From an uncultured archaeon (lineage in GTDB: Archaea > Iainarchaeota > Iainarchaeia > Iainarchaeales > JAAZKV01), in assembly GCA_964578405.1 (NCBI GenBank), contig CAZOCW010000003.1, positions 1-25,312 of the forward strand: a DNA stretch of 25,312 bases, read 5' to 3'. The position numbers were made by a program, and so were the translations under genes. Below are positions 2,634-21,680 of the stretch, in pieces. The first letter of the stretch is position 1. Each line of letters starts with the position of its first letter. Under the pieces are notes generated by a model. The model ran no database searches, was not told where the DNA came from, and worked only from the letters and a program-made list of their open reading frames with translations.

Positions 2634-2858
2634 TTATTGTTCTTCAGAGTCGCTATCGTTAGATCTATTGTCTCTAAATCCTGGTCTAGCTGGTCTGTCG
2701 TTCTTGTGCTTCTGGTAGCAGTCTCTACAATAAACTGGTCTTCCTTCAATTGGTTTGAACGGTACTTCAGTTTCTGTTCCGCAATCAGAGCATGTTGCTT
2801 TGTGCATTTCTCTTGGGCCACCGAATGATGGTCTGTTTCCGAATCTTCTTCCTTCCAT
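2634..2858 (-). CDS. Standalone CxxC-x17-CxxC zinc-ribbon protein
   Basis: PREMHKATCSDCGTETEVPFKPIEGRPVYCRDCY is the family signature, with Arg/Gly-rich flanks and a strong SD AAGGTGA upstream. Confidence 0.92.
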   Translation of the reverse strand: MEGRRFGNRPSFGGPREMHKATCSDCGTETEVPFKPIEGRPVYCRDCYQKHKNDRPARPGFRDNRSNDSDSEEQ

Positions 2859-3565: not shown

Positions 3566-6500
3566 TTGGGAATTTATTCTTTTTTTGAAGACAAGTGGTA
3601 TGACTTGCTTGAAGGAGTAAATAAATTTGTGCCAATATTGGCTGTTACAGATCAAATTGACAAAATTATTCCAAGTTTTATTTTATTTTTATTATTTTTA
3701 TTATTACTAATTCTTGGAGCAGGAGCATTTTTGTTCTTGAATACTACTCCAGCTTATGATGTTGAAGTAATTGTATTAAACAAAGTCGGAAACCCAATTG
3801 AAGGGGCGGTAGTAAAACTTTCAATGATTTGTAAGGAAGAAGAACTTCAAGTTTTAACAAATGCTCAAGGAAAAGTTTCCTTCACAGCATGTGATACTTC
3901 AGTGGATGTTACTGTTGAAAAACAAGCATACAAACAATTAATGGTTCCACTTGATTTTTCTGAAGAAAAAAGTCAAACTCTTAGTTTAAGTCCAATTGAG
4001 GTTCCTGTAAGAGAGGTAAATGTAACTGTAGTTGATGCTTCACAAAATTTAATTCAATCAGCAGGACTGGAACTAACTTGTGTTAATGGAAATGATTTAA
4101 ACAAACAAATTGTTACAACAAATAATCCTTCAAACATTCAAGGCACTCAAGGATTTAAAGTTACAGTTCCAAATGGATGTACACTTGTTCAATTAAAAGC
4201 AACTGCAACTTCATATACTGAAAATATAGTTACTCTAAATAGTACTGAAAATACTAAAAAAATTGTTCTTGAAAAACCAGTTGTTTTAGGTACTGCAATA
4301 TTTACTGCAAATAGTCCAATGGGTCTTCAATCTGATGCAATAATTACAGTTACTGATTCTGATGATAAAGAATATACTTTATACACTCTAGCAAATGGGC
4401 AAGTAATAAAACAATTTACTGCTGGAAATTATTCTTATAATGCAGTTGCAAGTGGTGCACAGGATAGTGGCACCTTTACTGTTATTGCAAATAAACCTGT
4501 TGATGTTAATGTTTACTTTTCAAAATTAGTTCCAATTATTGATACAACAAAAATGATTTATCTTTCATTAAAAGATGGAAATTCATTTGTTGGGGGAGCT
4601 GAAGCAAAAATATTTTTTACAAAAGCTAGCGATACAAATTATTGGATGCCTCTTTCTTCAACTTTGGCAGGAACTATTGGCCCAAGTCCAGTAACGGATA
4701 CTAATAACAAAACTTTTACTGCAATAATTAAAGCAAATAATTATGAAACAAAATTAGTTCCAATTGAACTAAAACTAAAGTCCGATTCTCCTCAACTTGT
4801 TGCAATGAAACAGGGCGGAACAACTCTAAAAATAAAAGTAGTAAATGATCTAAATGTTCCTGTTTCAAACGTACAAACAGTGCTTTACATTTCTTCTTTT
4901 GCAGGGTACTTTGATAAAAGTGCCTTAACTGATGTTAATGGATTAACTCAATACAAAGGTCTTCCAAGTGGGACATATAAAATAACTGCAAAAACAGAAA
5001 CTGATGAAGGTGAACTTACTAATGTAATTGTAAGTGGAACAACAAAAGAAGTAATTTTGCGAATGGTTACTGGGAGAGGAACAATTAAGTTTAATTTAAT
5101 GGATGATGAAGGAAAAGCAAATGCACTTGTTCAATTTTATGTTCAAAACCCAAATGGAACTTTTACAAAAACATTTGAAGGAAAAACAACAAAATATTAT
5201 TATGATTCAAATACTCTTAAAGCAGAGCAAAAAGTAAAACTAGTTGTTATTGATGAAAATTATATTCCTACAGAAAGCTTTGTTTACACATTAAAGCGTG
5301 GTACTCAAGACAAAACTTTATTTTTACGAAAACAAGCTTTGCTTCCAAATCAAAGAGAAACACAAATGATGCTAAGACAAGTTTATGCAAATAATCCATT
5401 GCTTTTAGGGGAAACAGTTGCAACAAGAATAATGCCTGGACAAAAATACTACTTATTATTTGATTTAGTGCTAAACAAAGAAGAAGATAGAAATGTTATT
5501 GCAAATTTTTATGTTGGTCCAGAAGACAAAAACACGTTAATAGCACACAATCCTTTTACATTAGGGTATACAGTTTCAAAAGGAACTTATTCTCCAGTAC
5601 TTTCTTCAAAACTGGAAGGATTTGAAATTAATCCTTCAGAAGCAGCAAATCCAAATTTAATAAAAAGCGGAGATTATAATGCTAAACAATTAAACGTACG
5701 ATTTGGTTCACAAAATGGATTGCAAATGATTCCAATTATTGTGGAAATAACAGTTGATGAGAATGCAACTGGTAAAACAAAAATATTTTGGCAATCAAGA
5801 TTTGGGGACATACCTTCACCAACAACTATGAGTTTATTGTATTCTAAAGAATTTGAAATAGGTAAAGCGTTTTGTATGGGGCTAGATTGTCCTGCTTTCT
5901 TATTCTCAAATTACATAAAACACGCTGATGATAATTCAAAGCCTATTAGTGATAATATTGAAGTATTATTACTAAATGAACCTTACAAAATGCAAACAAT
6001 AGTTGAAAATCTTACTGATGAATTAATAGGGGATGCAAATTTATCTTTAACAATTGAAAAAGCTGGACAAGTTAGATTACTATTTGCTGGGGACAAAAAT
6101 GTTACAAGTGCACCAGTAACAATTAATCCATTAGCACAAACAAATCTTGCACAGTTTGATTTGAATACAAAAACTTCTGCAATTGGTGCAATAAAAGTAT
6201 TTGAAAGTGTGCAAAAAATGCAAGGTGGCACGGATATTTTAGCATCAACTGAGGGAAACAAAAATAATTTTGTTAGATTTGAAGTAAGAAATAGAAATGA
6301 TTTGAATATTATTGTTGTTGCAACACAAACCAATGGAGTAATTTATGAAAAATCCTATTATCCATTCTTTGTAATAAATGTCCTTTCAATAAATGGGATG
6401 AATAGAGGACAAAAAACTGGAATTAAAGCAACTTGGGAAGCAAAAATTGATAATGGTACTACAAATGGACTTGAGTTTAAGTGCTTGCCTTTAACTAATA

Positions 6501-9500
6501 CTTGTAATGGAACAACTGATGAAAATGGATACGCAACAATTCCATTTGATGCAACAAATATTACTGCTGGAACAAGAATAATATTTACTGCAGTAGATGA
6601 AAATAATTCTACTCCTGCAAGAACGGTTGTTACAGTTACAAAAGCATTCCCTGATCCAATACCTGATCCAATTCAGTGTATAAAAATGAGAATTAGCGGA
6701 ACTATTGTTGATTCAAACTATATTGCTTCTCATCCATTCCCTTCAATTAATTTGGATGTTAATGTAATTGATGTAAGAAATAATTCTCTATCTTTAATTT
6801 ATCCTGATGATTTGGCTTGTGAGGGAGTAAAAAGAGTTACAATAACCACAGAAATTCAAGCAACACCAAAAACATTTGATATGAATAAGGGGCAAACAGT
6901 TACAATTGCACTTGATGGATCTCCGACAGTTGCTGCAAAAGAAGGAATGCTTGGAGCTTATCCTCTTGTAATAAATTCAAGTGGGCAAGGAGTAAGTGGA
7001 AAAGTTGGAGAAATTGATGTAATAATGAGTGATCCAAATTCACCATTTGTTTTGAGTAATCCAATAGTTGATTTACGAGTAGTTGACAAAGTTAATGTTA
7101 GTGTTACAAACAAAGATACTGCTGGAAGACAAGATAATTTCTATCCAAAAGTTGATATTTCTACGAATAGTGTTTCAATAGTTTATCATAAACCTGGAGT
7201 TCCAACAATTTATTTGCTTAGTCCAAAAGTAATTGGTTCAGCAATTGAATCACTAATCAATGGGGTAACTTGGGCGCAAGAAGTAGGACAACATGGGAGT
7301 AGTTGTATGAATCCAACTTATGCAACTCCTGATGACTTTTTGTTTAAAGAGGATATATTGCAACTTTGTACTGCGATGGTTACAAATGTATCCAAATACA
7401 AACCAACTCCAAAACCTGAACCTGATATTAATTTAGGGATTAATACAAACACTACTCCGCAATCTCTTGCAAGTGGAAAAGAAAATGTTGGGAAAATTTA
7501 TTTTGAAACTTCAACTCCTACAGGGGATCCAAAAGATGCAGAAGAAGGAGATATTTATTCATTATATCCCCCAGGATTACTTGGGCCAATTACTTTCCCA
7601 ATAGAAACTTGTCACCAAGATGCACTAAATAGTCCTTATGTTGCTGCTGAAAGACCACCTAACTGGCAAGGATCAGTAGAAAATAGTCCAATTTGGACTG
7701 GTGGGGGAGAAAAAGGATTTATTCAAATGCAAGTTTTGTCAACTCATCAATGTGGAGATCAAAGAATTGATGGGGAAGGCTCAATAGGTACTGATCCTAC
7801 TACTGGCGAAGTAATTGCGGGGGAGGGTGAAATGGCACCTTACGCTTACCTTTTCCATTCACATGGAACAACAGAAGGAAGTGGATTCTTAGGGTGGGGT
7901 ACAAGAGATAATCCATGTACATTTAACACACAAATTGAAAAAGCAAGAATATTCAATTGGCAACAAGAAGTGCAAAAAGAATGGACAAAAGATTATAACA
8001 TAATTCCAATTGAAGGGCCACCAAAGTCATTAGGTTCTTACGAAGCTACTCCTACTCCGCAATGGGGAGATATTTCAGAATATGCGGGTCATGCTCCGGG
8101 AGATACTTGGACAATGGATAATGGTTATTTAATGGGTGTTGTGTGTGTGCAACCAATGGGATTTATACCAATGGAAAAAGGAGAAAGAGATGTGAAATAT
8201 ACTGATTGGCCAAAAGATGGTCCTCCACTTGAAGATCCTGCGGATCCATTAGTTGAATACGATGATAGTGGAATGATAAAATACAAACTTGATCCGTCCT
8301 CAATTCCTGAAGGAATAAATATGTTCTTGCATAATGGACAAGTTTATGCACAATATATTGGAGTGCCAGAAATTGCAAGTAAAGTAATTGACATTAATTA
8401 TTCAAGAGTAAATTTACTTGGAAGCGAATATGCAACAATGACTGTTAGTGATTGGTACCAAGGAGTAAAGACAACAAAGAAATTCCAAATGCATTTAGTT
8501 GGAAACCCAACAAATTGTTACACTGCTGAAGGACAAGCAGGACTCACTGGTAAAGAATTTGTTCCAAAAGTTAGATTCAATTGGGATTGGAATTCAATTT
8601 TAACAAATACTTGTGATTCAACAAACAATGATTACATTTACTGTGATGCAACACAATTCACAACAGAATTGTTTAAGAAATTCCCACTAATCCAATCTGC
8701 GAAAGTAAATATTCAAGATGAATTACTTCCAAGATATACTTCATTTTATTCATACTTAATTAAAGATAATTACTCGGATAAATTCCTTGCTGATTTTTAC
8801 AAGTACAATTCAACTGCAGTATTCAATTCAACAGGAAACTTCCTTTCCACTTTGACAAATGTGGGGTATGATAGATTCATTACTGAACACAAATTACATT
8901 TTAGAATGAGAGATTCAAGCGGAACAATTTGGGATACAAACACTTGGTTGCCAAAAGGCGGAATTTATAGGGTTGAAATTGATGTTAACTTTAATGATCC
9001 AAATGTGCACAGTATGTTTGATGGAAATACTCTTAATGCTGAAATATTTGTAACATTTACTTTAGTTCGTGAAGCACCAAACTACAATCCATTCTACGAA
9101 ACTCCATTTGACGGAATGGTTGGAATAGAAAATGGAATTAACATTAGAGATGGATACGGATCAGGATTAGTTCCAACTAGTGAAATATCATTGCCTTTAG
9201 CTTTAGGAATGGCAAATTTAACAAAATCAAATAATTCAATGGTAAAAATAAATTATCAAACGGAAACAAATTTAAGTAGATTAAATAAAGGGGTAGTGCT
9301 TGAATACATTAATGGCAGTGCGGATAATAATAAAACTCTAAAGTTCTATCCTGCGCAACCAGGCCCTGTGTTAATGAATATTACTTCAACTACTGCTGGC
9401 CCAGTTACTGCAACTTACAAATTAAACGGATTTGACGCGGGTACTGGAATGACAAAGAAATGGACAATGGTGTCTTCAACAATTGGAAAATCAAAATGCC

Positions 9501-9931
9501 AAGACTTTTCATCAAATCAAGAATACACATTTACTGATGGGTACATGGATAATAATTATAGACAATTCTCTTGGCCAGCTGGAAGAAATGTTGGAACTAT
9601 TAGTCTTGCAACAGTATTCTTTACTCCAAACACACTTGGAACATTTAATCCAACTTACTTGACTTCTTCAGATAGTAATTATACTAAATTATATTCAGTT
9701 GATCAATTAGTAAATGGAGTAGCAGGGCAATCAGTATTATTGAATTACTATGATACTCAAGAAGGGATTGATTATACTACTATCAAAGGAGTATTTGATA
9801 AACTTTCAAGTACTCAAATGTGTGTGACACAAAACCAAGCTGAAAATATGAAAGTATTTTGGAACCCTGATTACTTACAATCACTAATTGATTTAGTTCC
9901 AAATAAACAAGGAAAAGATTGTACTGACTAG
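3566..9931 (+). CDS. Giant membrane-anchored surface protein (2121 aa): carboxypeptidase-regulatory-like/Ig-like beta-sandwich repeats, a Pro/Gly/Trp-rich insert, and a C-terminal domain shared with the next gene
   Basis: TTG start with SD-like AGTGA and an N-terminal TM helix (FILFLLFLLLLILGAGAFLFL). Repeated motifs of the type V.V.n..G.PI.GA.V.L and TD.NG.....L..G.Y.I.A are typical of these beta-sandwiches. Confidence 0.85.
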   Translation: MGIYSFFEDKWYDLLEGVNKFVPILAVTDQIDKIIPSFILFLLFLLLLILGAGAFLFLNTTPAYDVEVIVLNKVGNPIEGAVVKLSMICKEEELQVLTNAQGKVSFTACDTSVDVTVEKQAYKQLMVPLDFSEEKSQTLSLSPIEVPVREVNVTVVDASQNLIQSAGLELTCVNGNDLNKQIVTTNNPSNIQGTQGFKVTVPNGCTLVQLKATATSYTENIVTLNSTENTKKIVLEKPVVLGTAIFTANSPMGLQSDAIITVTDSDDKEYTLYTLANGQVIKQFTAGNYSYNAVASGAQDSGTFTVIANKPVDVNVYFSKLVPIIDTTKMIYLSLKDGNSFVGGAEAKIFFTKASDTNYWMPLSSTLAGTIGPSPVTDTNNKTFTAIIKANNYETKLVPIELKLKSDSPQLVAMKQGGTTLKIKVVNDLNVPVSNVQTVLYISSFAGYFDKSALTDVNGLTQYKGLPSGTYKITAKTETDEGELTNVIVSGTTKEVILRMVTGRGTIKFNLMDDEGKANALVQFYVQNPNGTFTKTFEGKTTKYYYDSNTLKAEQKVKLVVIDENYIPTESFVYTLKRGTQDKTLFLRKQALLPNQRETQMMLRQVYANNPLLLGETVATRIMPGQKYYLLFDLVLNKEEDRNVIANFYVGPEDKNTLIAHNPFTLGYTVSKGTYSPVLSSKLEGFEINPSEAANPNLIKSGDYNAKQLNVRFGSQNGLQMIPIIVEITVDENATGKTKIFWQSRFGDIPSPTTMSLLYSKEFEIGKAFCMGLDCPAFLFSNYIKHADDNSKPISDNIEVLLLNEPYKMQTIVENLTDELIGDANLSLTIEKAGQVRLLFAGDKNVTSAPVTINPLAQTNLAQFDLNTKTSAIGAIKVFESVQKMQGGTDILASTEGNKNNFVRFEVRNRNDLNIIVVATQTNGVIYEKSYYPFFVINVLSINGMNRGQKTGIKATWEAKIDNGTTNGLEFKCLPLTNTCNGTTDENGYATIPFDATNITAGTRIIFTAVDENNSTPARTVVTVTKAFPDPIPDPIQCIKMRISGTIVDSNYIASHPFPSINLDVNVIDVRNNSLSLIYPDDLACEGVKRVTITTEIQATPKTFDMNKGQTVTIALDGSPTVAAKEGMLGAYPLVINSSGQGVSGKVGEIDVIMSDPNSPFVLSNPIVDLRVVDKVNVSVTNKDTAGRQDNFYPKVDISTNSVSIVYHKPGVPTIYLLSPKVIGSAIESLINGVTWAQEVGQHGSSCMNPTYATPDDFLFKEDILQLCTAMVTNVSKYKPTPKPEPDINLGINTNTTPQSLASGKENVGKIYFETSTPTGDPKDAEEGDIYSLYPPGLLGPITFPIETCHQDALNSPYVAAERPPNWQGSVENSPIWTGGGEKGFIQMQVLSTHQCGDQRIDGEGSIGTDPTTGEVIAGEGEMAPYAYLFHSHGTTEGSGFLGWGTRDNPCTFNTQIEKARIFNWQQEVQKEWTKDYNIIPIEGPPKSLGSYEATPTPQWGDISEYAGHAPGDTWTMDNGYLMGVVCVQPMGFIPMEKGERDVKYTDWPKDGPPLEDPADPLVEYDDSGMIKYKLDPSSIPEGINMFLHNGQVYAQYIGVPEIASKVIDINYSRVNLLGSEYATMTVSDWYQGVKTTKKFQMHLVGNPTNCYTAEGQAGLTGKEFVPKVRFNWDWNSILTNTCDSTNNDYIYCDATQFTTELFKKFPLIQSAKVNIQDELLPRYTSFYSYLIKDNYSDKFLADFYKYNSTAVFNSTGNFLSTLTNVGYDRFITEHKLHFRMRDSSGTIWDTNTWLPKGGIYRVEIDVNFNDPNVHSMFDGNTLNAEIFVTFTLVREAPNYNPFYETPFDGMVGIENGINIRDGYGSGLVPTSEISLPLALGMANLTKSNNSMVKINYQTETNLSRLNKGVVLEYINGSADNNKTLKFYPAQPGPVLMNITSTTAGPVTATYKLNGFDAGTGMTKKWTMVSSTIGKSKCQDFSSNQEYTFTDGYMDNNYRQFSWPAGRNVGTISLATVFFTPNTLGTFNPTYLTSSDSNYTKLYSVDQLVNGVAGQSVLLNYYDTQEGIDYTTIKGVFDKLSSTQMCVTQNQAENMKVFWNPDYLQSLIDLVPNKQGKDCTD

Positions 9932-10082: not shown

Positions 10083-10112
10083 TTACTTTAGTGCTTTTTT
10101 AGGTTGAATAAA

Positions 10113-13100
10113 ATGGGTAAAGGGCAACAGAATTATTATGCTGAAGAAGAGGATACTCCTCAAGAACAATCAAGCGATCAACCAATTTTTGCTGGACTTA
10201 CTTTTAGAAAAATTACTTCAATTGCGCTAATTCTATTAGTTTTAGTAATAGTTCTTTTCTTAGTTTTAAATTTACTTGGACAAAAAGGAGGCCCATTGTT
10301 TTTGAATTCTGATGGGAACAAAATTTTGGGGCATGCAACTTTGTCAAAAGATGGAAAATTACTTGATTCATTTGCCATGGATGGAAATAAACTTTCCATA
10401 ACTGGAAATCCAAATAACACTGTTTATTCCACAATTAAAACAAACGGGTTAATTGATGGAAATAAAAAAATTGAATTTATAATTAGGGATTCTCGCGGGA
10501 GAATAACTTCAATTAAAGTATCTTCAAGTGATGTTTCAATTGATGAAAATGGAAACATTCATTTTTCTTTCAAACCAACTGAGGACATGAATCTTGATGA
10601 TTACTATGATGAGAATACTGGGGAGTATAATTTTCCAAATGGAGAGACTGTTGATTTAGAATTTGAATTTGTTATAACTAATGATGAGAATGAAACTGCA
10701 ATAATTGATATTCCTGCAGAATTTATTTTCCAAGATTTTATTCAAAGTGGATGCATTGCTTTTGAAAAAACAACAATTAGAGAATCCACCCACTTTGGAG
10801 CACTAGAACTTAATACGCGAATGAGAGTAATTTGTGCGGTTCCTGCGGATCTAGTTTCAAACCTTGAATGGCAAGGAGAAAGAATGGGGAATGTGGAAGT
10901 TAGATTTAATGAAATTTACAAAAACTCTTCAGTGCTTACTCCTTATGCAAAATCAGTTTATGCAACAATCCCTCAAGGAGAGTATAATGTAAAAATTATT
11001 TTTACTCCATTCAAAGAATATTCTGGACAAAAAGCTTCATTCTTTGTTAACTTTGCTTTAGGGACAAGCACAGCAAAATTAGATTTTGATGTTGCAATTG
11101 ATAATTTAGAACAATGCATTAAACTTACTCCTGAAAAAGTTGTAATACCTGCTGATCAAGATTCTGCTAATTTAACTATTGATGTTTCTTCTTGTGCATC
11201 AAGTAAAGTGGAAATTAGTATTTGTGATAATGATCCTAGTTGTGCTGGAGGGAGCGAGGGCGGGATAGATGTTTCTCAAATGTTTTTTGCACTTAATACT
11301 GGAAGTGGCTCAACTAAAACTATTAGAATAACTCGAGGAGAAATTGCTGGTGCGTATGGTGCAACAATTTATGCACGTGCACCAGGAATTGAAAAAGTAT
11401 TTGTTGATGATAAACTTGTAATTGTTGAACCAAACTCTGATGCAACAATTGTTCCTGATAAATATGTTGTTTCACTAATTGGGGGCGCAAGAGATTCTGT
11501 TCGAATAACAAATAAAACTTTGGCAGAAAATGTTAATGTTAATACAAGTATTTGTTCGGTTTACAAAGGTTCTTTAGGAATAACTGGGGATACTTCAATT
11601 GGTGCTGCAATCACTGCTTACGGAGGAACAAAAAGTTGGTGGTATGATTTAGCAACAAACCCTGATAGATATGCTGGGAGTGGAAAGTATCAAGCATCTT
11701 TAATTAATACACTTGCCGCACTTGATAATATTAGAGCTGCTACTCAAAATTCTTCTCAATCCAAAAATTCTTTAATTAAAACTGCATTTTTAACAGGAAG
11801 TGATATTGCAACAACAGTTACGGAAACTGTTACTGCTTCAGATCAAGCAACAGAAAAATTAACTGATTTACAAACTGCTTCTGATCATTATAATCAATTT
11901 GCGACTGTTGATCTTGCTACAACTTATGCTTCATTGGCTTCAAATGCAGCTTCACTTTATCTTGGTGCATCAACTGTGGGGACAACTACGGTTTCTGCAA
12001 AATCCGCAACAGTGGCTTATCAAGCGGCTACTATTTCTGTCTTATGCACTTCTGCCCAACCAGGTGCTTCGACAGCGGTTAATAGTGAACTTATTGCAGA
12101 GGGTATTTTAGCTACAGAATATGCTCTTCAGGCTAAAGGAATTTATGATGCTGTTGCGGCAATGGCGGATCCGCCAAAAGAGATTAATCCGAGTGCAGCA
12201 GTTACAAAAAATGAAACACTTGTAGAAAAAATAACTGAATTAAAAACACACACTGATAAAACAATGGATTATTTGAGACTTGCTTTGAAATATGCTTCAC
12301 TTGATTCTTTTACAAATGCTTCAAAGGATGATGCTAAAGTTGTTGAATATTTAAAACTTGCAAAAGCAGAAAATGTTTTGGCACAAGCCTCATTAGTTGC
12401 TGCGCAATCTGCAGCTGCTGATGCTGATGATGAATTAACTACAATGATACAAGAAGAAATGAGTGATTTGGACAAAGCTATTTCCTATGTTTCAATGGTT
12501 GATTCAATACTCCAATTACTTCCTGCGTGTATTGCTAGTAATTTTACCGTGACTGGTAATGCAACATCCGCCCAGAGTGGAATGACTGCTTCATACGCTG
12601 CTGCAGGGGCTGAATGCACTGCAACTTCTGGGTTAAGTCCGTGCTGTGCTCTTGTTGCAGTTGGTCCTACCGTTGGTGCGGCAGCTAATGCAGCAATTGC
12701 TTCTCAACAAGCAGCATTGGGTGCTAATAACGGAACGTTAACAGCATTATCTGCTTTGTCTTTAGGTCTTCAAGGGTATACTATTTGGAGACAAGCAGAA
12801 CTCCCTGCAATGATTACTGCAACAAATGATGCAAGAAATAGTTTGTCTACGGTTATTGCAAAACTTTCTGCGGTTGGAGCAAAACTTGATGCATTAGAGT
12901 TAGCAATTGATCCTGCAATTACTGCGGCTGAATGGTTAAGCACTGAAGAAAAAAATGCAGCAGATGGATCAACTTACGATACTTACCTTGGAATAAATTT
13001 TAGTGATGAGTTTAATAAAAAAAGAATGACTGGATTAATTTCAACTGCAATTATGAATGGATTTGTAAATGGGGCTTATGCTGGGGGAGTTTATACTACT

Positions 13101-15389
13101 GCAAATACTTTTGCCACAGGAAGTGCTTCACCAATTAGAACACAAGAAAATAATTCAAATAAAGAAAATAAAATTTCTTTTGAAGATACTACTGATACAA
13201 CTACGGGGGATACAAGTACAACTTCAACAGATACTTCTACAACTGTTGATACTTCAGAAACAAGTAATGTTGAATTAAAAGAAAATTGTTCAAATCAAAT
13301 TTCATTAATCGTTCCTGATTACATTGTTAATTTAGTTCATGACGGAAAACAAATTGTTGTTTCAAATCCGGGAGTAACTGCTGTTTGGGATCACTCGGAT
13401 GCAAAAGTATTTGATGTGTTTGAATCTCAAGAAACTGGGGTAAAATTTGCAAATTCTGGAATTAAAAATAATTCTTATGGAGTAGTAGAATTTAATATTG
13501 CTAAACACCTTCATGATGATCCTGCTACTGTTACGGGGACAGATTTTGGGCCATTTAATGTCACTGATTCAAGTGTACAAGAAATGAAAGTAAAATACCA
13601 CTTCAAGTTTAATTCAATGCCAAGGCAAGGAAATAATTACACTCCTGTTGCAAACAATGAGTGTATCGATGGATTAATGAGAGGAAATACTGGGAACGCA
13701 GGAATACCAAAAGTAATTATGTCTTGGGATTGGAATAGTGTAAAAGGAGTGGGGTCTATTGCGGGTGCAGGAAGTTCTCAAAGAAATATCTCTAATGCAA
13801 TAGTTGGAGAAAATAATCCTGACGAACCATATCTTGATGCAACACAATTAACAATATTAATAAGTAAAAAACTTGGATCTTTATCAAATTTCTTAGAAAC
13901 TGTAACTCCTCAATGCCCTGAAAATCCAGCGAACAAAATTCTTGTTGCAGTTAGACCATTTATTTCAAATCCAACAACTGGATTACCTTATACGGGTGAA
14001 ACACAAGATGCAGGAAACTTTTGTTATTTACCATTAACTACAAGATATTATGATGGCAAACCCGCACTTTATTATTTTGTTGAAGATTCTCCAATGACTG
14101 CTTGGGAATTTTTCTTTAGTGATACTGAAAGAATAAATAATGCTCAAGAATTAATTAAACTAGTAGACTTTAATGTAAATTTAATGAGAGATGGGTATGG
14201 AACTGATTTCCAATATGATTTCGTAAACAGATTTACTAATTCAATAATGCAAGCAGGACCTTCATTTATGGATCCTAACCAAGGAGCAAGAAGATACTTT
14301 AGTGACAAGGAAAGAATTTATTTTAGTTCACAAGCTAATGCACTAAATGCAAATTCAAAGTGGGTTCTTCCTGATGCTGGAAAATACAGAGTACGAATGT
14401 TAATTGATTTTGAAGATGTTGCAAAAATATTTGATGGATCAAGTCCACAAGCAAGAATAATAGTTGAATTATATTCTCTTGATCCTGTAAATAGTGGATA
14501 CAGTCCATTGTATTATATGCCAATTGATGGACTTGTTGGATTAAGTGCTAGCGGATCAAGAACAAGTTACGGTTCATCAATTACTAGTGGGAGTACTTTT
14601 GATATTTCAAAGAGTGACGGAGTTTACCTGGATACAAGTCAAAAAAATTCTCTTGTAAAAATTAATTATTCTAAAGTAGAGGATTTCTTTACGCTAAATG
14701 CTCTTCCATCAATGCGAGGAAAACTACTTGAGTTAAAATATAATTATAATCCAAAAACAATGCGTGATGAAAACTCTTACATAAAATATTTCCCAAGTGT
14801 TGCAACTCCTCTGCTCTTTGAAATACAGGGATTAGAAGGACAACAAACATTTTACACTTACTCTGTAAAAAGAAATAATCAACCTATTAATTCAACATTT
14901 AGTAATATGCTATTGTTGTCTAGCGTTGGAAAGTGTACTGATCTTGCTGGAGCTCCTCTCTCAGGCTTTTATTATAAAGCTCCGGATTATGGTGAAAACG
15001 GAATGTATGGGGTATTATTACCAACTGCACAAGTAAGTGGAACAACTTATTTGAAATCAATTACTTATTCTCCATTAATGGATGCATTTGATATGTTAAA
15101 ACCTAAAAATGGACAAATTTATAATCCTAGTGATTTAAAAGGAATAAATAATCCTGTTGCATTAATTGGAATAAGTGGAATGCCTTACAATGATAAAAGT
15201 GCAAATTCAACTCCTGCTTCATTAACTGATCTACTTAAAGGAGTAGAGGCAAAGAGCATTTGTGTATCTTCACTGGGTGATCGAGAATTCTTCTTTTGGC
15301 CAGAAGACAAATTATACTCAACAAATAGTCTTGAGGGCGGATCACTCAACTCTCTTGAAAATACTGCTAAAGGAAATTGTGTACAATAA
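10113..15389 (+). CDS. Giant membrane-anchored surface protein (about 1758 aa) with an Ala-rich helical insert and a C-terminal domain paralogous to the upstream gene
   Basis: ATG 10113 follows SD-like AGGTTGA (the track starts at TTG 10104). It has an acidic N-tail, one TM helix (IALILLVLVIVLFLVLNLL), a beta-rich region, an Ala-rich region, an S/T/D linker and the shared C-terminal motifs. Confidence 0.85.
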   Translation: MGKGQQNYYAEEEDTPQEQSSDQPIFAGLTFRKITSIALILLVLVIVLFLVLNLLGQKGGPLFLNSDGNKILGHATLSKDGKLLDSFAMDGNKLSITGNPNNTVYSTIKTNGLIDGNKKIEFIIRDSRGRITSIKVSSSDVSIDENGNIHFSFKPTEDMNLDDYYDENTGEYNFPNGETVDLEFEFVITNDENETAIIDIPAEFIFQDFIQSGCIAFEKTTIRESTHFGALELNTRMRVICAVPADLVSNLEWQGERMGNVEVRFNEIYKNSSVLTPYAKSVYATIPQGEYNVKIIFTPFKEYSGQKASFFVNFALGTSTAKLDFDVAIDNLEQCIKLTPEKVVIPADQDSANLTIDVSSCASSKVEISICDNDPSCAGGSEGGIDVSQMFFALNTGSGSTKTIRITRGEIAGAYGATIYARAPGIEKVFVDDKLVIVEPNSDATIVPDKYVVSLIGGARDSVRITNKTLAENVNVNTSICSVYKGSLGITGDTSIGAAITAYGGTKSWWYDLATNPDRYAGSGKYQASLINTLAALDNIRAATQNSSQSKNSLIKTAFLTGSDIATTVTETVTASDQATEKLTDLQTASDHYNQFATVDLATTYASLASNAASLYLGASTVGTTTVSAKSATVAYQAATISVLCTSAQPGASTAVNSELIAEGILATEYALQAKGIYDAVAAMADPPKEINPSAAVTKNETLVEKITELKTHTDKTMDYLRLALKYASLDSFTNASKDDAKVVEYLKLAKAENVLAQASLVAAQSAAADADDELTTMIQEEMSDLDKAISYVSMVDSILQLLPACIASNFTVTGNATSAQSGMTASYAAAGAECTATSGLSPCCALVAVGPTVGAAANAAIASQQAALGANNGTLTALSALSLGLQGYTIWRQAELPAMITATNDARNSLSTVIAKLSAVGAKLDALELAIDPAITAAEWLSTEEKNAADGSTYDTYLGINFSDEFNKKRMTGLISTAIMNGFVNGAYAGGVYTTANTFATGSASPIRTQENNSNKENKISFEDTTDTTTGDTSTTSTDTSTTVDTSETSNVELKENCSNQISLIVPDYIVNLVHDGKQIVVSNPGVTAVWDHSDAKVFDVFESQETGVKFANSGIKNNSYGVVEFNIAKHLHDDPATVTGTDFGPFNVTDSSVQEMKVKYHFKFNSMPRQGNNYTPVANNECIDGLMRGNTGNAGIPKVIMSWDWNSVKGVGSIAGAGSSQRNISNAIVGENNPDEPYLDATQLTILISKKLGSLSNFLETVTPQCPENPANKILVAVRPFISNPTTGLPYTGETQDAGNFCYLPLTTRYYDGKPALYYFVEDSPMTAWEFFFSDTERINNAQELIKLVDFNVNLMRDGYGTDFQYDFVNRFTNSIMQAGPSFMDPNQGARRYFSDKERIYFSSQANALNANSKWVLPDAGKYRVRMLIDFEDVAKIFDGSSPQARIIVELYSLDPVNSGYSPLYYMPIDGLVGLSASGSRTSYGSSITSGSTFDISKSDGVYLDTSQKNSLVKINYSKVEDFFTLNALPSMRGKLLELKYNYNPKTMRDENSYIKYFPSVATPLLFEIQGLEGQQTFYTYSVKRNNQPINSTFSNMLLLSSVGKCTDLAGAPLSGFYYKAPDYGENGMYGVLLPTAQVSGTTYLKSITYSPLMDAFDMLKPKNGQIYNPSDLKGINNPVALIGISGMPYNDKSANSTPASLTDLLKGVEAKSICVSSLGDREFFFWPEDKLYSTNSLEGGSLNSLENTAKGNCVQ

Positions 15390-15411: not shown

Positions 15412-16383
15412 CTAGTCTCGGTCAATTATTTTAGTTTTGTATTTTGAATTCTTATTTTTTAGTAAAATTATTCTTGAATTCTCTTTTTCACTTTCAAACT
15501 TATAAGAAGGCATTAATGCTAACAGTTTATTTGTGAAACCTTTTGTGTAATCATGTGAAGGAGTATTGTGTTCTCCTAATCTTTGTCTTGAATACCCTAA
15601 CCACATATAGGATTTAACTTCAATAAAATCTGATTTTACTGCTTCAAGCATGCTTGCGAATTCTTTAATCGTTTCGTCTGAATCATTTAACTCTTTAATT
15701 AGAGTTAAACGAATTACACTTCTTGTTGGTAAGAGCGAAAGCATTGCAAGAGATTTAAGATATTTAACCCAGCCATCCTTTTCTTTATTGCAAGTAATAC
15801 TTTTGAATAACTTTTCGTTAGGCGCAACCATTGAAAGATATAATTGAGTGGGAAGAGAAGTTTCTTTCCACATTTTTTTTAACATGTTTGGATTTTCTCC
15901 GTTACTTACAATGAAAACAGTTTCAGTTCCTTTTCTTTCTTTTAATAATCTAACAAGTTCTGGTAAACGTTTGTATAAAGTTGGTTCTCCACTAAGTGAA
16001 ATTGCCCAATGTTTTGTTTCTAGAGCTTTGTTAAAAGTTTCTTTACTTACTTTGTCATGCCCTCCAAAACCACTAATTAATTTCTTTCTTTCTTCTATTA
16101 ACCCATCAATCATTTTCTTTGGATCAATTATACTATCGGGTTTATCTCCCATGTATTCTTTTGGTCTCCAACAAAAAATGCAAGAATTATTACACCAAAA
16201 AGTTGTGGGTGCGATTTGGTGGCAAGAAATTGTATCTGCTCCATAAAAATCTTGTTTGTAACAGTGGCCCTCTCCTCGAAGAGCTTTTTTATTCCACTCG
16301 CAAATCTGTATACTAGCGTCCTCAAAGAAGCCATATTTCTTATGAGAAAAATCGCTTTTCAGTTCTTTTTTGTTCAAAATCAA
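15412..16383 (-). CDS. taw1: 4-demethylwyosine synthase TYW1/Taw1 (radical SAM tRNA-modifying enzyme)
   Basis: CYKQDFYG...SCHQIAP, radical SAM motif CNNSCIFCWRP, AISLSGEPTLY, FIEVKSYMWLGYSRQRL. Confidence 0.95.
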   Translation of the reverse strand: MILNKKELKSDFSHKKYGFFEDASIQICEWNKKALRGEGHCYKQDFYGADTISCHQIAPTTFWCNNSCIFCWRPKEYMGDKPDSIIDPKKMIDGLIEERKKLISGFGGHDKVSKETFNKALETKHWAISLSGEPTLYKRLPELVRLLKERKGTETVFIVSNGENPNMLKKMWKETSLPTQLYLSMVAPNEKLFKSITCNKEKDGWVKYLKSLAMLSLLPTRSVIRLTLIKELNDSDETIKEFASMLEAVKSDFIEVKSYMWLGYSRQRLGEHNTPSHDYTKGFTNKLLALMPSYKFESEKENSRIILLKNKNSKYKTKIIDRD

Positions 16384-17069: not shown

Positions 17070-18947
17070 ATGATGGCTAAAGGACAAGGAACAATTGAAT
17101 ATTTGGTTATACTTGCCGTAATAGTAATCTTGGGTCTTGTTGTTGTAAGTATTATACTAAATCTAACAAACTTTTCTTCAGTTATTAATTCAACGGATAA
17201 AATTGGGGCAAATATTGGGAATCCCATTGCAATTCTTGATGCAGCAATTGATAGTCAGGGAGAAGCAATATTTGTTTTGAGAAGTAATAAAGGAGAAAAC
17301 TTATCCTTAAGTGCGATAACTGTTGAAGGGGTGGATGCTAATGCCAGCGGGGTAATTCCTCAAATAGATTCATCTACTATAAAATTTGCTGGACTTAGTA
17401 ATGCCTGTTGTAAAGGTCAGTTAGGAAAAAAAAAGTGTCAAATAAAATTTTATTATACCACTCCCTATGGGAGTGATTCAACTGAAGTAACTTCAATAGT
17501 TGATTGTTTAAATGATATTGATGTGGGGTGCGTTTATTCCTATTCTTCTTGGAGCGATTGTAATTACCAAGGATTTCAATCAAGAAGCTTAATTTCATCA
17601 ACTCCTTCTGGATGTGTAAAAAACTTATCTCTTTCTCAACCATGCACTTATACAGATATTACTCCTCCTCAAATAGTATTATTTTCTCCTCAAGATAATA
17701 ATTATTGGTCAAGTTCAACAATAATTAATTTTGATTATAATGTTTCTGATGCGTCTCCAATAACTTCTTGCAGTTTACTTGCTGATGGAGTGAATGTTTC
17801 TACTCAAAATAATCCTTCTACTGGGATAAATACGATCGCTTATCATTTAAATGACAGCAATCATATTTGGGGAATAACTTGCACGGATATGTTTTCAAAT
17901 ACTTCTACAAACTCTCCGCGAAATATTAGTGTTGATGCAAATTCATATGAAATTAATAATTGTGTTCAATTACAAGGAATAGATAATAATTTGACGGGAA
18001 ATTATATTTTAATGAATGATATTAATTGTGCAACAGACACTACTTTGGGCGGGACACTTTATAATGCGGGGGCAGGATTCAATCCAATTGGAGATTATTC
18101 TGGAAATGATTTTTTGGGAATTCTTGATGGAAACAAACATAAAATTTACGGATTAAATATAAACCAGCCCTCTGGGACAGGAATTGGATTGTTTTCTTCA
18201 ATTGGAACAAGTGGAAGTGTAAAGAAAATTGAAATCCTTGATGCAAATGTTAATGGGGATAATGCAACAGGAATACTTGCGGGACAATGCAAAGGGTCAA
18301 TAACCCAAGCTGGAGTTGGGGGGGCAATTACATTAAGTTATGCTGGTGGGGGAATGGTTGGGGAACTTTATGGGACAATAAGTGAAGCATATTCCTCAGC
18401 AAAAATAACTACTGTCGGGTCAAGTGCGAATGGACTTGGGGGAATTGTTGGATCACTTGCAAACAATTCTGGAGCAATAATAACAAATTCTTACTTTGAT
18501 GGAAATATTTACACTTCAAGAATTAGTGCCGCTGGAATAGCTGCAATGGGGTTTGCAGGAACAAGTATTACAAATTCATATTCTTCTGGGCCAATAAGTG
18601 CAGCAAATTATGCGGGAGGACTAGTTTCAGCAGCTTCTGGGGTAAGTGTGACGAACTCTTTTTCTGTTTCTAAAATAACTACTGTTGCTACGGGTGGAGG
18701 GGTACTTGCATATGTGATGACTGCCACACCGACAGGAAACTATTGGGATACAATTTTGACAAGCAGAAATAGCTGTTATAGGCTTATTGTAGGGGGGGAC
18801 TCTAATGTAGGGTGTACGGCAACTAAAAATAATCCAAGTTACTATTATAATAAGAACAATGCTCCAATGAATGGTAATTGGGACTTCACTAATGTGTGGG
18901 ATCAAAATGTGAATGGATATCCGGTGCTAAGATGGAGAAGCAGTTAA
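17070..18947 (+). CDS. Class III signal peptide (type IV pilin-like) protein with a thrombospondin-like motif, an Ig-like domain and a GLUG-type beta-helix
   Basis: MMAKG|QGTIEYLVILAVIVILGLVVV has K-G before the cleavage site, Q at +1 and E at +5. Further motifs are SSWSDC...QSR, DITPPQIVLFSP, and repeated GGxxG/GLxG units (GILAG, GGMVG, GGIVG, GGLVS). Confidence 0.85.
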   Translation: MMAKGQGTIEYLVILAVIVILGLVVVSIILNLTNFSSVINSTDKIGANIGNPIAILDAAIDSQGEAIFVLRSNKGENLSLSAITVEGVDANASGVIPQIDSSTIKFAGLSNACCKGQLGKKKCQIKFYYTTPYGSDSTEVTSIVDCLNDIDVGCVYSYSSWSDCNYQGFQSRSLISSTPSGCVKNLSLSQPCTYTDITPPQIVLFSPQDNNYWSSSTIINFDYNVSDASPITSCSLLADGVNVSTQNNPSTGINTIAYHLNDSNHIWGITCTDMFSNTSTNSPRNISVDANSYEINNCVQLQGIDNNLTGNYILMNDINCATDTTLGGTLYNAGAGFNPIGDYSGNDFLGILDGNKHKIYGLNINQPSGTGIGLFSSIGTSGSVKKIEILDANVNGDNATGILAGQCKGSITQAGVGGAITLSYAGGGMVGELYGTISEAYSSAKITTVGSSANGLGGIVGSLANNSGAIITNSYFDGNIYTSRISAAGIAAMGFAGTSITNSYSSGPISAANYAGGLVSAASGVSVTNSFSVSKITTVATGGGVLAYVMTATPTGNYWDTILTSRNSCYRLIVGGDSNVGCTATKNNPSYYYNKNNAPMNGNWDFTNVWDQNVNGYPVLRWRSS

Positions 18948-20015: not shown

Positions 20016-21680
20016 TTGAATAGGACATTAATGACAAGCATAGTGCTAATAGGAATAGCACTTCTATTTTTTGGGTGTATAGGGGGATTTAATGCTGCGG
20101 ATATAGCAAAACTTGATTCCTCAGTACAAGCATTTCTTTCTCAACATCCAAACGCAGATATTAAAGCAGTGCAAATAAGTGCAAGTGATTTTAATTCAAT
20201 GAAAGATTTAGTTTCAACTCAATGCGAAATACCAATGGCAGTTAAGGACTATTGGAGAGTAAAAATAACTGATGCAAGCACACAACTAAAGATGACTGTG
20301 TGGATTGATTCAAATACACAAAAAGTTATATGTGTAATTAAAGAAGGACAAGATAATAATGGAAAAGTTGTTCCTCCGGTTGATACAAACGTTGTAATTC
20401 CACCAGTGGATACAAATACTGTTGTTAATCCTCCAGTAGATCAAAACAATACTCTTCCAGTGGACACAAATAATGTTACTCCTCCGGTTGATGTAAACGT
20501 GGTAGTGCAAGCTCCAATTGATAGAGTAAAAGTAGGAAATATCTACTTGAGTGTAGCACAAATAGAACTTGACAGTTACGGAACTGGAATTGATGCAATT
20601 AAACTAAGATTGGACAACGAAACGGATGTTGAACAATCAGTTTCAAAGAAAATCTCAATTAGTGTACTAAATGATAAGAATGAAGTTGTTGATGCTAGTA
20701 CATACCAACCCTCTCTTTCAGTTAGTGATATGAAAGAACTACAATTTGAAAATCTAACAAGTACTTTTTTATATCAAAAACTTTCTCCAGGAACATACAC
20801 TGTGAAAATAGGAATTTATAACGATGGTTCAACAACTACAACTACTTTCTTAACAAAGAAAGTTACTATTGGGCCAGATGCAGACAAAATAATAGTTTAT
20901 CCAAGAAAAGTAGAAACTTTTGCTCCTACTGATTCAATTACTTTGGGACAAGTAAAAGTATACTTAGAAACAATAATGTTGAGTGATGCTGGAACAAAAA
21001 TTGATGAATTCAGACTAAGACTTGAAAACTTGGCAATTACTGATCAATCAGTTTCAAAAGATTTCTCAGCAGAAGTACTTAATGAAAAAAACGAAGTGGT
21101 AGATGTAAGTTCATACGCCCCATCAGTTTCAGTAAGTGATATGAAAGAAGTACAATTCGAATCAATGACTAGTACTTTCTTGTACGAAAAACTTTCTCCA
21201 GGAACATACACAGTTGTTGCTAAATTCTATAACGCAGGATCAGCAAAGTCAAGTGTTTATTTGACTAAAACAATTAGAATCGGTCCTGATGAATTACAAA
21301 ATATAGACAACGCTAAAAAAGTAATGAAATATACGTTAACTGCAGGAGAAATAACAAAAGTTACTCTAGACTCTTACGGGACAGCAGTAGACAAATATTC
21401 ATACAAAGTTAGCGGAACAACATTATCAGGCAAAGTAATTGAAGCAATAATGTTAAACGACAAAAATGAAGTTCTTGATGTAGCAAGTTACGCGCAATCA
21501 ATAAGTGTAAGTAACATAGTAAACGATTTACTATCAGTGAATAATTCCTTTTTGTATAAAAAACTTCCAAATGGGGACTATACATTGTTAGTTCAAATCT
21601 ACAATGATAACTCAAGCGTACCAGGATTTATTATGGCTAAAAAAGTAACCATCTCACCTGACGCACCAAAAGAACAATAA
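20016..21680 (+). CDS. Lipoprotein-like surface protein with a PPVDTN repeat linker and three tandem beta-rich repeats of about 120 aa
   Basis: Signal ending LLFFGC, five P(P)VDxN units (20373-20498), and three repeats sharing LN[DE]KNEV.D...Y..S.SVS and FLY.KL..G.YT. TTG start with SD-like GGGTGG. Confidence 0.8.
   Translation: MNRTLMTSIVLIGIALLFFGCIGGFNAADIAKLDSSVQAFLSQHPNADIKAVQISASDFNSMKDLVSTQCEIPMAVKDYWRVKITDASTQLKMTVWIDSNTQKVICVIKEGQDNNGKVVPPVDTNVVIPPVDTNTVVNPPVDQNNTLPVDTNNVTPPVDVNVVVQAPIDRVKVGNIYLSVAQIELDSYGTGIDAIKLRLDNETDVEQSVSKKISISVLNDKNEVVDASTYQPSLSVSDMKELQFENLTSTFLYQKLSPGTYTVKIGIYNDGSTTTTTFLTKKVTIGPDADKIIVYPRKVETFAPTDSITLGQVKVYLETIMLSDAGTKIDEFRLRLENLAITDQSVSKDFSAEVLNEKNEVVDVSSYAPSVSVSDMKEVQFESMTSTFLYEKLSPGTYTVVAKFYNAGSAKSSVYLTKTIRIGPDELQNIDNAKKVMKYTLTAGEITKVTLDSYGTAVDKYSYKVSGTTLSGKVIEAIMLNDKNEVLDVASYAQSISVSNIVNDLLSVNNSFLYKKLPNGDYTLLVQIYNDNSSVPGFIMAKKVTISPDAPKEQ

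Follow-up and report, generated by a model that had tools for sequence, protein, structure and literature searches.

What does a 500-residue, Ala-rich insert do inside a giant surface protein of an uncultured Iainarchaeales archaeon? The gene lies on contig CAZOCW010000003.1 of assembly GCA_964578405.1, of which the whole stretch analysed (25,312 nt) is here called the window. The original prediction was of a surface-displayed module that enters a host membrane by two uncharged helical hairpins, and which proteins make the contacts of DPANN cells with their hosts is unknown (10.1101/2023.02.24.529834; PMC11329633). The insert, hereafter the arm, is classed here with stalked surface proteins whose helical tip varies. 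The reading favoured here, given about an even chance of being right, is that the arm is a soluble, rod-like four-helix module shown from a Cys-bounded slot, with a tip that recognises the envelope of a partner cell. Host-membrane insertion was partly supported, and piercing of another cell's membrane is possible.

The fold was modelled with AlphaFold2 on aa 336-1295 (mean predicted local distance difference test, pLDDT, 75; predicted template modelling score 0.56). Helices were obtained at aa 528-645, 652-731 (broken), 739-840 and 846-955, followed by a short one at 972-994. The four long helices have about 118, 80, 102 and 110 residues, with pLDDT mostly 62-97, and the turns share one end. 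The model predicts four helices packed up and down into a rod about 15-17 nm long (1.5 Å per residue), both Cys turns being distal, and structural matches to four-helix bundles confirm the packing. The parts of the arm are as follows.

11685-12296, + strand: hairpin 1 (helix aa 528-645, turn Cys648, return helices aa 652-731)
11964-12131, + strand: hairpin 1 tip (aa 621-676), hypervariable, charge-poor
12318-12968, + strand: hairpin 2 (helix aa 739-840, turn Cys838/847/848, return helices aa 846-955)
12522-12734, + strand: hairpin 2 tip (aa 807-877), hypervariable, nearly charge-free
13017-13097, + strand: Gly-rich "helix B" (aa 972-998), better conserved than any other part of the insert and homologous to the second helix of the hydrophobic hairpin seen in the family

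Hairpin 2 is probably an internal duplicate of hairpin 1, since the two sequences matched in hhalign (96.9%, E 1.3e-10; reversed control 74.6%). Each of the four helices is amphipathic, with a hydrophobic inner face. At the base, 30-43% of the outer-face residues are charged. Distally, the value is 5-13% in three of the four segments, where Ala/Gly/Ser/Thr make up 60-72% of the outer face; in the fourth segment the two figures are 15% and 48%.

The composition of the insert (11584-13125, aa 494-1008) was as first described, rich in Ala (19%; 5.5% elsewhere in the protein), Thr (12%), Ser (9%) and Leu (9%). Cys at both turns and the S/T/D linker (aa 1027-1054) were also confirmed, and the helices have an amphipathic, heptad-type pattern running right up to the tips. 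Two stretches had been called nearly charge-free. The second (aa 801-896) has 2 charges in 96 residues, including a charge-free run of 58 residues (P=0.003 by shuffling), and none of 5000 shuffles gave a 95-aa window as charge-poor; the first (aa 603-688) carries 7 charges in 86 residues and is charge-poor only in its core (aa 604-661, one Lys in 58 residues). To call the hairpins hydrophobic was an overstatement: the best Kyte-Doolittle 19-residue mean (KD19) was 1.05 in hairpin 1 and 1.68 in hairpin 2 (aa 847-865), compared with 3.19 in the N-terminal anchor. Medians among 31 homologues were 1.35 and 1.42, with 6 and 7 of the 31 reaching 1.6. Three paralogue-like homologues keep the Cys turns and have hairpins that are 20-36% charged. 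On the proposed likeness to pore-forming proteins, AlphaFold2 gave a four-helix rod, read here as soluble, and ClyA-family toxins were the best natural matches in the structural search.

The tips are hypervariable. Orthologues shared a mean identity of 0.16-0.22 in the tips; in the stalk, in helix B and where the head begins it was about 0.5. Relative to the nearest orthologue (L084), the tips were 52% and 34% identical, stalk plus head 93% and helix B 100% (30/30). Differences at fourfold-degenerate sites were 0.53 in the tips vs 0.29 (p=0.006), and two further pairs gave p=0.018 and 0.31; because silent divergence is raised at the tips, significantly in two of three pairs, there are hints that tip segments have been exchanged by recombination. 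The short hairpins found in the same slot of other members diverge about as quickly as N-terminal anchors, and their variability is uninformative.

An odd number of Cys in each hairpin was found in 30 of 42 dereplicated orthologues (1+1, 1+3, 3+3, 3+5, 1+7, 1+9), a statistic inflated by the relatedness of these sequences. The simplest reading of this parity would be one disulfide joining the hairpins, with further Cys paired within each. A single zinc hook at the tips is disfavoured, as Cys totals of 2, 6, 8 and 10 occur.

The remaining parts of the protein and its upstream paralogue are the following.

10104-15389, + strand: whole gene, 1761 aa, N-terminally anchored giant surface protein
10212-10283, + strand: N-terminal transmembrane anchor (aa 37-60; KD19 3.19)
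10284-11552, + strand: beta-rich stalk, enriched in D-x-N (last modelled domain, aa 336-445, an immunoglobulin (Ig) fold of PapD/ASH/MSP-like type)
11553-11555, + strand: Cys484, invariant, opening the cassette slot
13116-13274, + strand: disordered S/T/D/N linker of variable length (pLDDT under 50)
13275-15389, + strand: second half of the apparent split beta-sandwich and C-terminal head, modelled confidently, yet without a match in a PDB structure search
13287-13289, + strand: Cys1062, invariant, closing the cassette slot
3566-9931, + strand: upstream paralogue (2121 aa) that shares the head but has another insert at its centre

The gene probably starts at the ATG at 10113, giving 1758 aa. 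An acidic N-terminal tail and Arg-Lys precede the transmembrane helix; the protein would be N-in and C-out, exported with its N-terminus anchored. The strands flanking the insert appear, from secondary structure, to form a single split beta-sandwich bracketed by Cys484 and Cys1062, which may be joined by a disulfide; the linker is missing from some orthologues. The head, of about 600 aa in a C-terminal part of about 700 residues, has several near-invariant Cys and aromatic residues and is a marker of the whole order Iainarchaeales. No Pfam match was obtained for the whole protein, nor any PHROG match for its parts. The N-terminal anchor, Ig-like stalk, variable central cassette and shared head place it among the giant membrane-anchored surface proteins of Iainarchaeales, found in 138 of the 140 order genomes searched, in several copies each. 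The long arm was detected in one family only, as a single copy in 15 of 16 genomes. Homologues carry the labels Ca. Iainarchaeum sp. and Ca. Diapherotrites. The best-matching public sequencing runs were freshwater metagenomes, with no RNA run among those listed with the gene; exact pieces covering parts of both tips were present in a second study, at a read depth (2-5) too low for population variation.

Short cassettes (L039:17334-17696, L061:2610-3050, L062:4400-4801 and 24 more loci) have 67-107 residues between the two Cys and consist of a Gly/Ala hairpin of strong hydrophobicity, with an acidic flank and, in many cases, CxxC or Pro at the turn. Other slot passengers in the family, either Cys-rich repeats or linkers rich in S/T, are extracellular cargo. 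A third paralogue of the source genome (L041:2003-10051, contig C24, a 2683-aa open frame) retains both Gly-rich helices, with a low-complexity, T/S/G-rich passenger of 350 residues between them, and sister-class paralogues (L056, L058, L069, L071) carry Cys-rich repeats, with up to 29 Cys per 330 residues, directly before the second Gly-rich helix. The Gly-rich helix that closes the cassette before the second Cys is present in the arm protein and linked to the long cassettes of other families (hhalign 97.3%, E 1.9e-11); the link from long to short cassettes is weaker (hhalign 42%) and rests on position and visible continuity of the motif. Glycine-zipper PF13488 was matched by 2 of 27 short cassettes (best E 0.0004) and 1 of 16 long ones, and this insert matched neither PF13488 nor PF05433. 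The family tree was a quick one with a poorly resolved backbone, and does not give the age order of short and long cassettes. A cytoplasmic arm between two membrane helices was rejected, as helix B is weak in the arm protein (median KD19 1.05), no helix A can be recognised and the cargo of sister cassettes is Cys-rich and extracellular. The upstream paralogue, whose central segment varies between conserved flanks and of which some family genomes have up to four or more copies, is like a cassette system; the tandem pair that it forms with the arm gene recurs in many genomes of the family.

None of the 28 Asp of the insert is in D-x-N, as had been noted; the count holds, but a single sequence would give it by chance with P=0.24. 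Across 42 orthologues, which are kin and not independent, 17 D-x-N were observed in the insert vs 69 expected, and 137 vs 79 in the stalk. D-x-N-x-S/T was absent from the insert (0 vs 13.5 expected), and E-x-N, unlike D-x-N, was unaffected. In 91 N-anchored or secreted open reading frames (ORFs) of the source genome, D-x-N was 3.1-fold enriched (336 vs 108; z about 22), far ahead of all others among 400 pairs, compared with 1.3-fold in cytoplasmic ORFs; N-x-S/T was not enriched in exported ORFs. The upstream paralogue has 35 D-x-N vs 9 expected, and ORF 20016-21680 contains DTN repeats. The WWD motif of AglB reads the +2 Ser/Thr (PMC7226087). The family's AglB was present in 31 of 37 genomes and was not found in the source genome (82% complete). 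Its motif varies in the family (WWD, WWN or WWG); genome G018 has two STT3-like genes, and the Asp of WWD is absent from the second and from several others (AglB loci L097, L089; L096). Hypothetically, D-x-N may be a non-canonical N-glycosylation sequon, and the signal could point to a lineage-specific rule of this kind; alternatively, D-x-N may bind calcium or form a turn.

Computation showed the fold and the slot, and that the distal third bears few charges and small residues on its outer faces, that the tips are hypervariable, that the helix at the base is conserved and that D-x-N is avoided. Under the favoured reading, the exported protein would stay anchored in the membrane by its N-terminus, and a single disulfide would staple the two tips, additional Cys being gained pairwise. 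The slim, uncharged and probably glycan-free tip would pass the partner's surface coat and bind a variable target on its envelope, thereby setting partner specificity; it would contact the partner surface, possibly lipid head groups, without a transmembrane pore, and would be exchanged or diversified under antagonistic selection. A four-helix rod is about 2.5 nm wide. Since a host S-layer pore was measured at 3.5 nm (PMC11329633), passage of the predicted rod through the partner coat is plausible. As a discrete, foldable module of 500 residues with a hypervariable tip, the arm can be made and tested, and as a binding probe it could capture unknown Iainarchaeum partners.

Several points weigh against recognition by a soluble tip. 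The low tip charge is conserved in composition, and a lipid-facing surface would give the same; a hairpin of transmembrane strength fills the slot in 27 of 28 short forms, so that the slot seems membrane-directed; and the ClyA-family matches cover the fifth helix too. The dN/dS values (ratios of nonsynonymous to synonymous substitution rates) gave no sign of positive selection, being 0.33-0.79 at the tips and below 1 everywhere. The arm's own Cys count is 1+4, the tip disulfide being deduced from parity. To our knowledge no ligand, host or culture is known. Diapherotrites were earlier proposed to be free-living (PMC5905446) and the genus has no known host, so that "host" is itself an inference.

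One alternative is a tethered membrane-inserting module, similar to a ClyA/AhlB protomer or a translocator on a stalk, in which hairpin 2 (with hairpin 1) would enter the host membrane on contact, alone or with paralogues, anchoring the cell or opening a pore. Its toxin-like topology and the ancestry of the slot in hydrophobic hairpins argue for it, and host-inserting segments can be just moderately hydrophobic (PMC9993115); we consider it possible, if on balance unlikely. Canonical N-x-S/T sites were rejected as an argument against insertion, being slightly depleted in the hairpins. The arm shows no sequence similarity to the ClyA-family alpha-pore-forming toxins (ClyA, AhlB/AhlC, SmhA/B, Hbl, MakA/E), is longer, and is tethered inside a 1761-aa anchored protein. 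With profiles of 31-44 sequences, no match to any member was obtained in Pfam, NCBIfam or PDB sequences, and a profile search of 1.84 billion proteins returned only family members and weak partial matches without the family's flanking domains. The ClyA family has a conserved hydrophobic tongue, whereas the arm tips are Cys-bearing, hypervariable and amphipathic, with a low median KD19, charged hairpins in paralogues and the least conservation of any region; instead of a secreted soluble protomer, the arm is an internal domain of an N-terminally anchored protein. The major translocators of type III secretion systems (T3SS; IpaB/SipB/YopB/AopB) likewise have coiled coils with two hairpins of intermediate hydrophobicity, but translocon proteins conserve their membrane regions most strongly (PMC9993115), where the arm is least conserved. 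Translocators, accompanied by chaperones, pass through an injectisome, whereas the arm protein has its own anchor; neither an injectisome nor a class II chaperone was among the annotated ORFs of the window, and no genome-wide search for them was made. SipB was matched by 1 of 31 members, at E 0.026 only. A wider proposal, possible but on balance unlikely, is that of membrane harpoons: the multi-paralogue stalked family would put the slot's hydrophobic hairpin into a partner membrane, and a convergent ClyA-like four-helix arm would cross the host coat and insert its uncharged tips. If true, it would give a first molecular candidate for the grip of these DPANN cells on host membranes, or for their opening of them.

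A structural role, rather improbable in our view, would have the arms pack with neighbours or paralogues into a dense surface assembly, with small uncharged residues as packing faces and tips varying to evade viruses or predators, in the manner of trypanosome coat proteins. Outer faces of small residues suit helix packing, and the conserved gene pair and a multi-copy family in nearly all order genomes are expected of an envelope component; the arm itself, however, occurs in one family only, and glycans would be expected on a shield, yet the putative D-x-N motif is avoided. Trypanosome coat proteins such as the variant surface glycoproteins (VSGs) and ISG65-type proteins are Ala-rich, with Cys-stabilised heads. 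These VSGs and invariant surface receptors are also membrane-anchored long helical bundles with variable membrane-distal, decoy heads (PMC11065263), but they are eukaryotic and three-helix, and no homology to the arm was found, which leaves a functional analogy only. It is very unlikely that the slot is turned towards the cell's own membrane, with short forms as hairpin anchors and the long arm as a stilt whose uncharged tip lies in or on that membrane. A segment with KD19 2.4-3.5 in a Sec-exported chain normally integrates into the cell's own membrane, but self-facing tips would have no reason to vary far more than the rest, the loops of the short hairpins (4 K/R in 234 residues) lack a positive-inside bias, the flank is acidic, and helices B and A are weak and unrecognisable, respectively, in this protein.

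Pfam (whole protein and 31 inserts), NCBIfam (44 inserts), PHROGs and PDB sequences yielded scattered coiled-coil matches only, and the ESM Atlas gave no lead by features (best 0.76) and a template modelling score of at most 0.27 by structure. An uncharacterised phage protein among viral structures was rejected (E 7e-4, root-mean-square deviation 36). Among the structural matches listed there were no T3SS translocators, colicins or VSGs. With regard to fusogens (class I/II, fusexins), no convincing viral or PDB match was listed, and the arm tips are not conserved as a fusion peptide or loop would be. Coiled-coil proteins near type IV pilus genes of cluster 2 DPANN are likewise surface coiled coils proposed for host contact (10.1101/2023.02.24.529834), but they belong to other lineages and pilus loci and were likened to reovirus sigma-1, whereas the arm gene neighbours a paralogue and a wyosine radical-SAM gene. 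In Ca. Forterrea multitransposorum, a 42-kb region encodes five membrane-anchored proteins of more than 1,800 aa, for which no domains or mechanism were given (PMC5905446); they very probably belong to the family of the arm protein. Homologues are clustered in genome G026, and the one examined has a short hydrophobic hairpin instead of the arm. A limited literature search found no paper describing the domains of the family, and at most the mention of those five proteins.

Downstream, at 15412-16383 (- strand), the wyosine-formation radical-SAM gene (Taw1-like) is a conserved neighbour. At 17070-18947, between DUF2666 and PAP2 genes that adjoin in relatives, lies the gene of a 625-aa protein that has Ig and GLUG motifs and a signal peptide of class III (pilin-like). 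A tRNA-Thr(TGT) at 1865-1936 is followed by an Imm1-family immunity protein (2028-2450) with no adjoining toxin. The gene at 2634-2858 (- strand) encodes a 74-aa protein with a CxxC-x17-CxxC zinc-ribbon pattern and Arg/Gly-rich ends.
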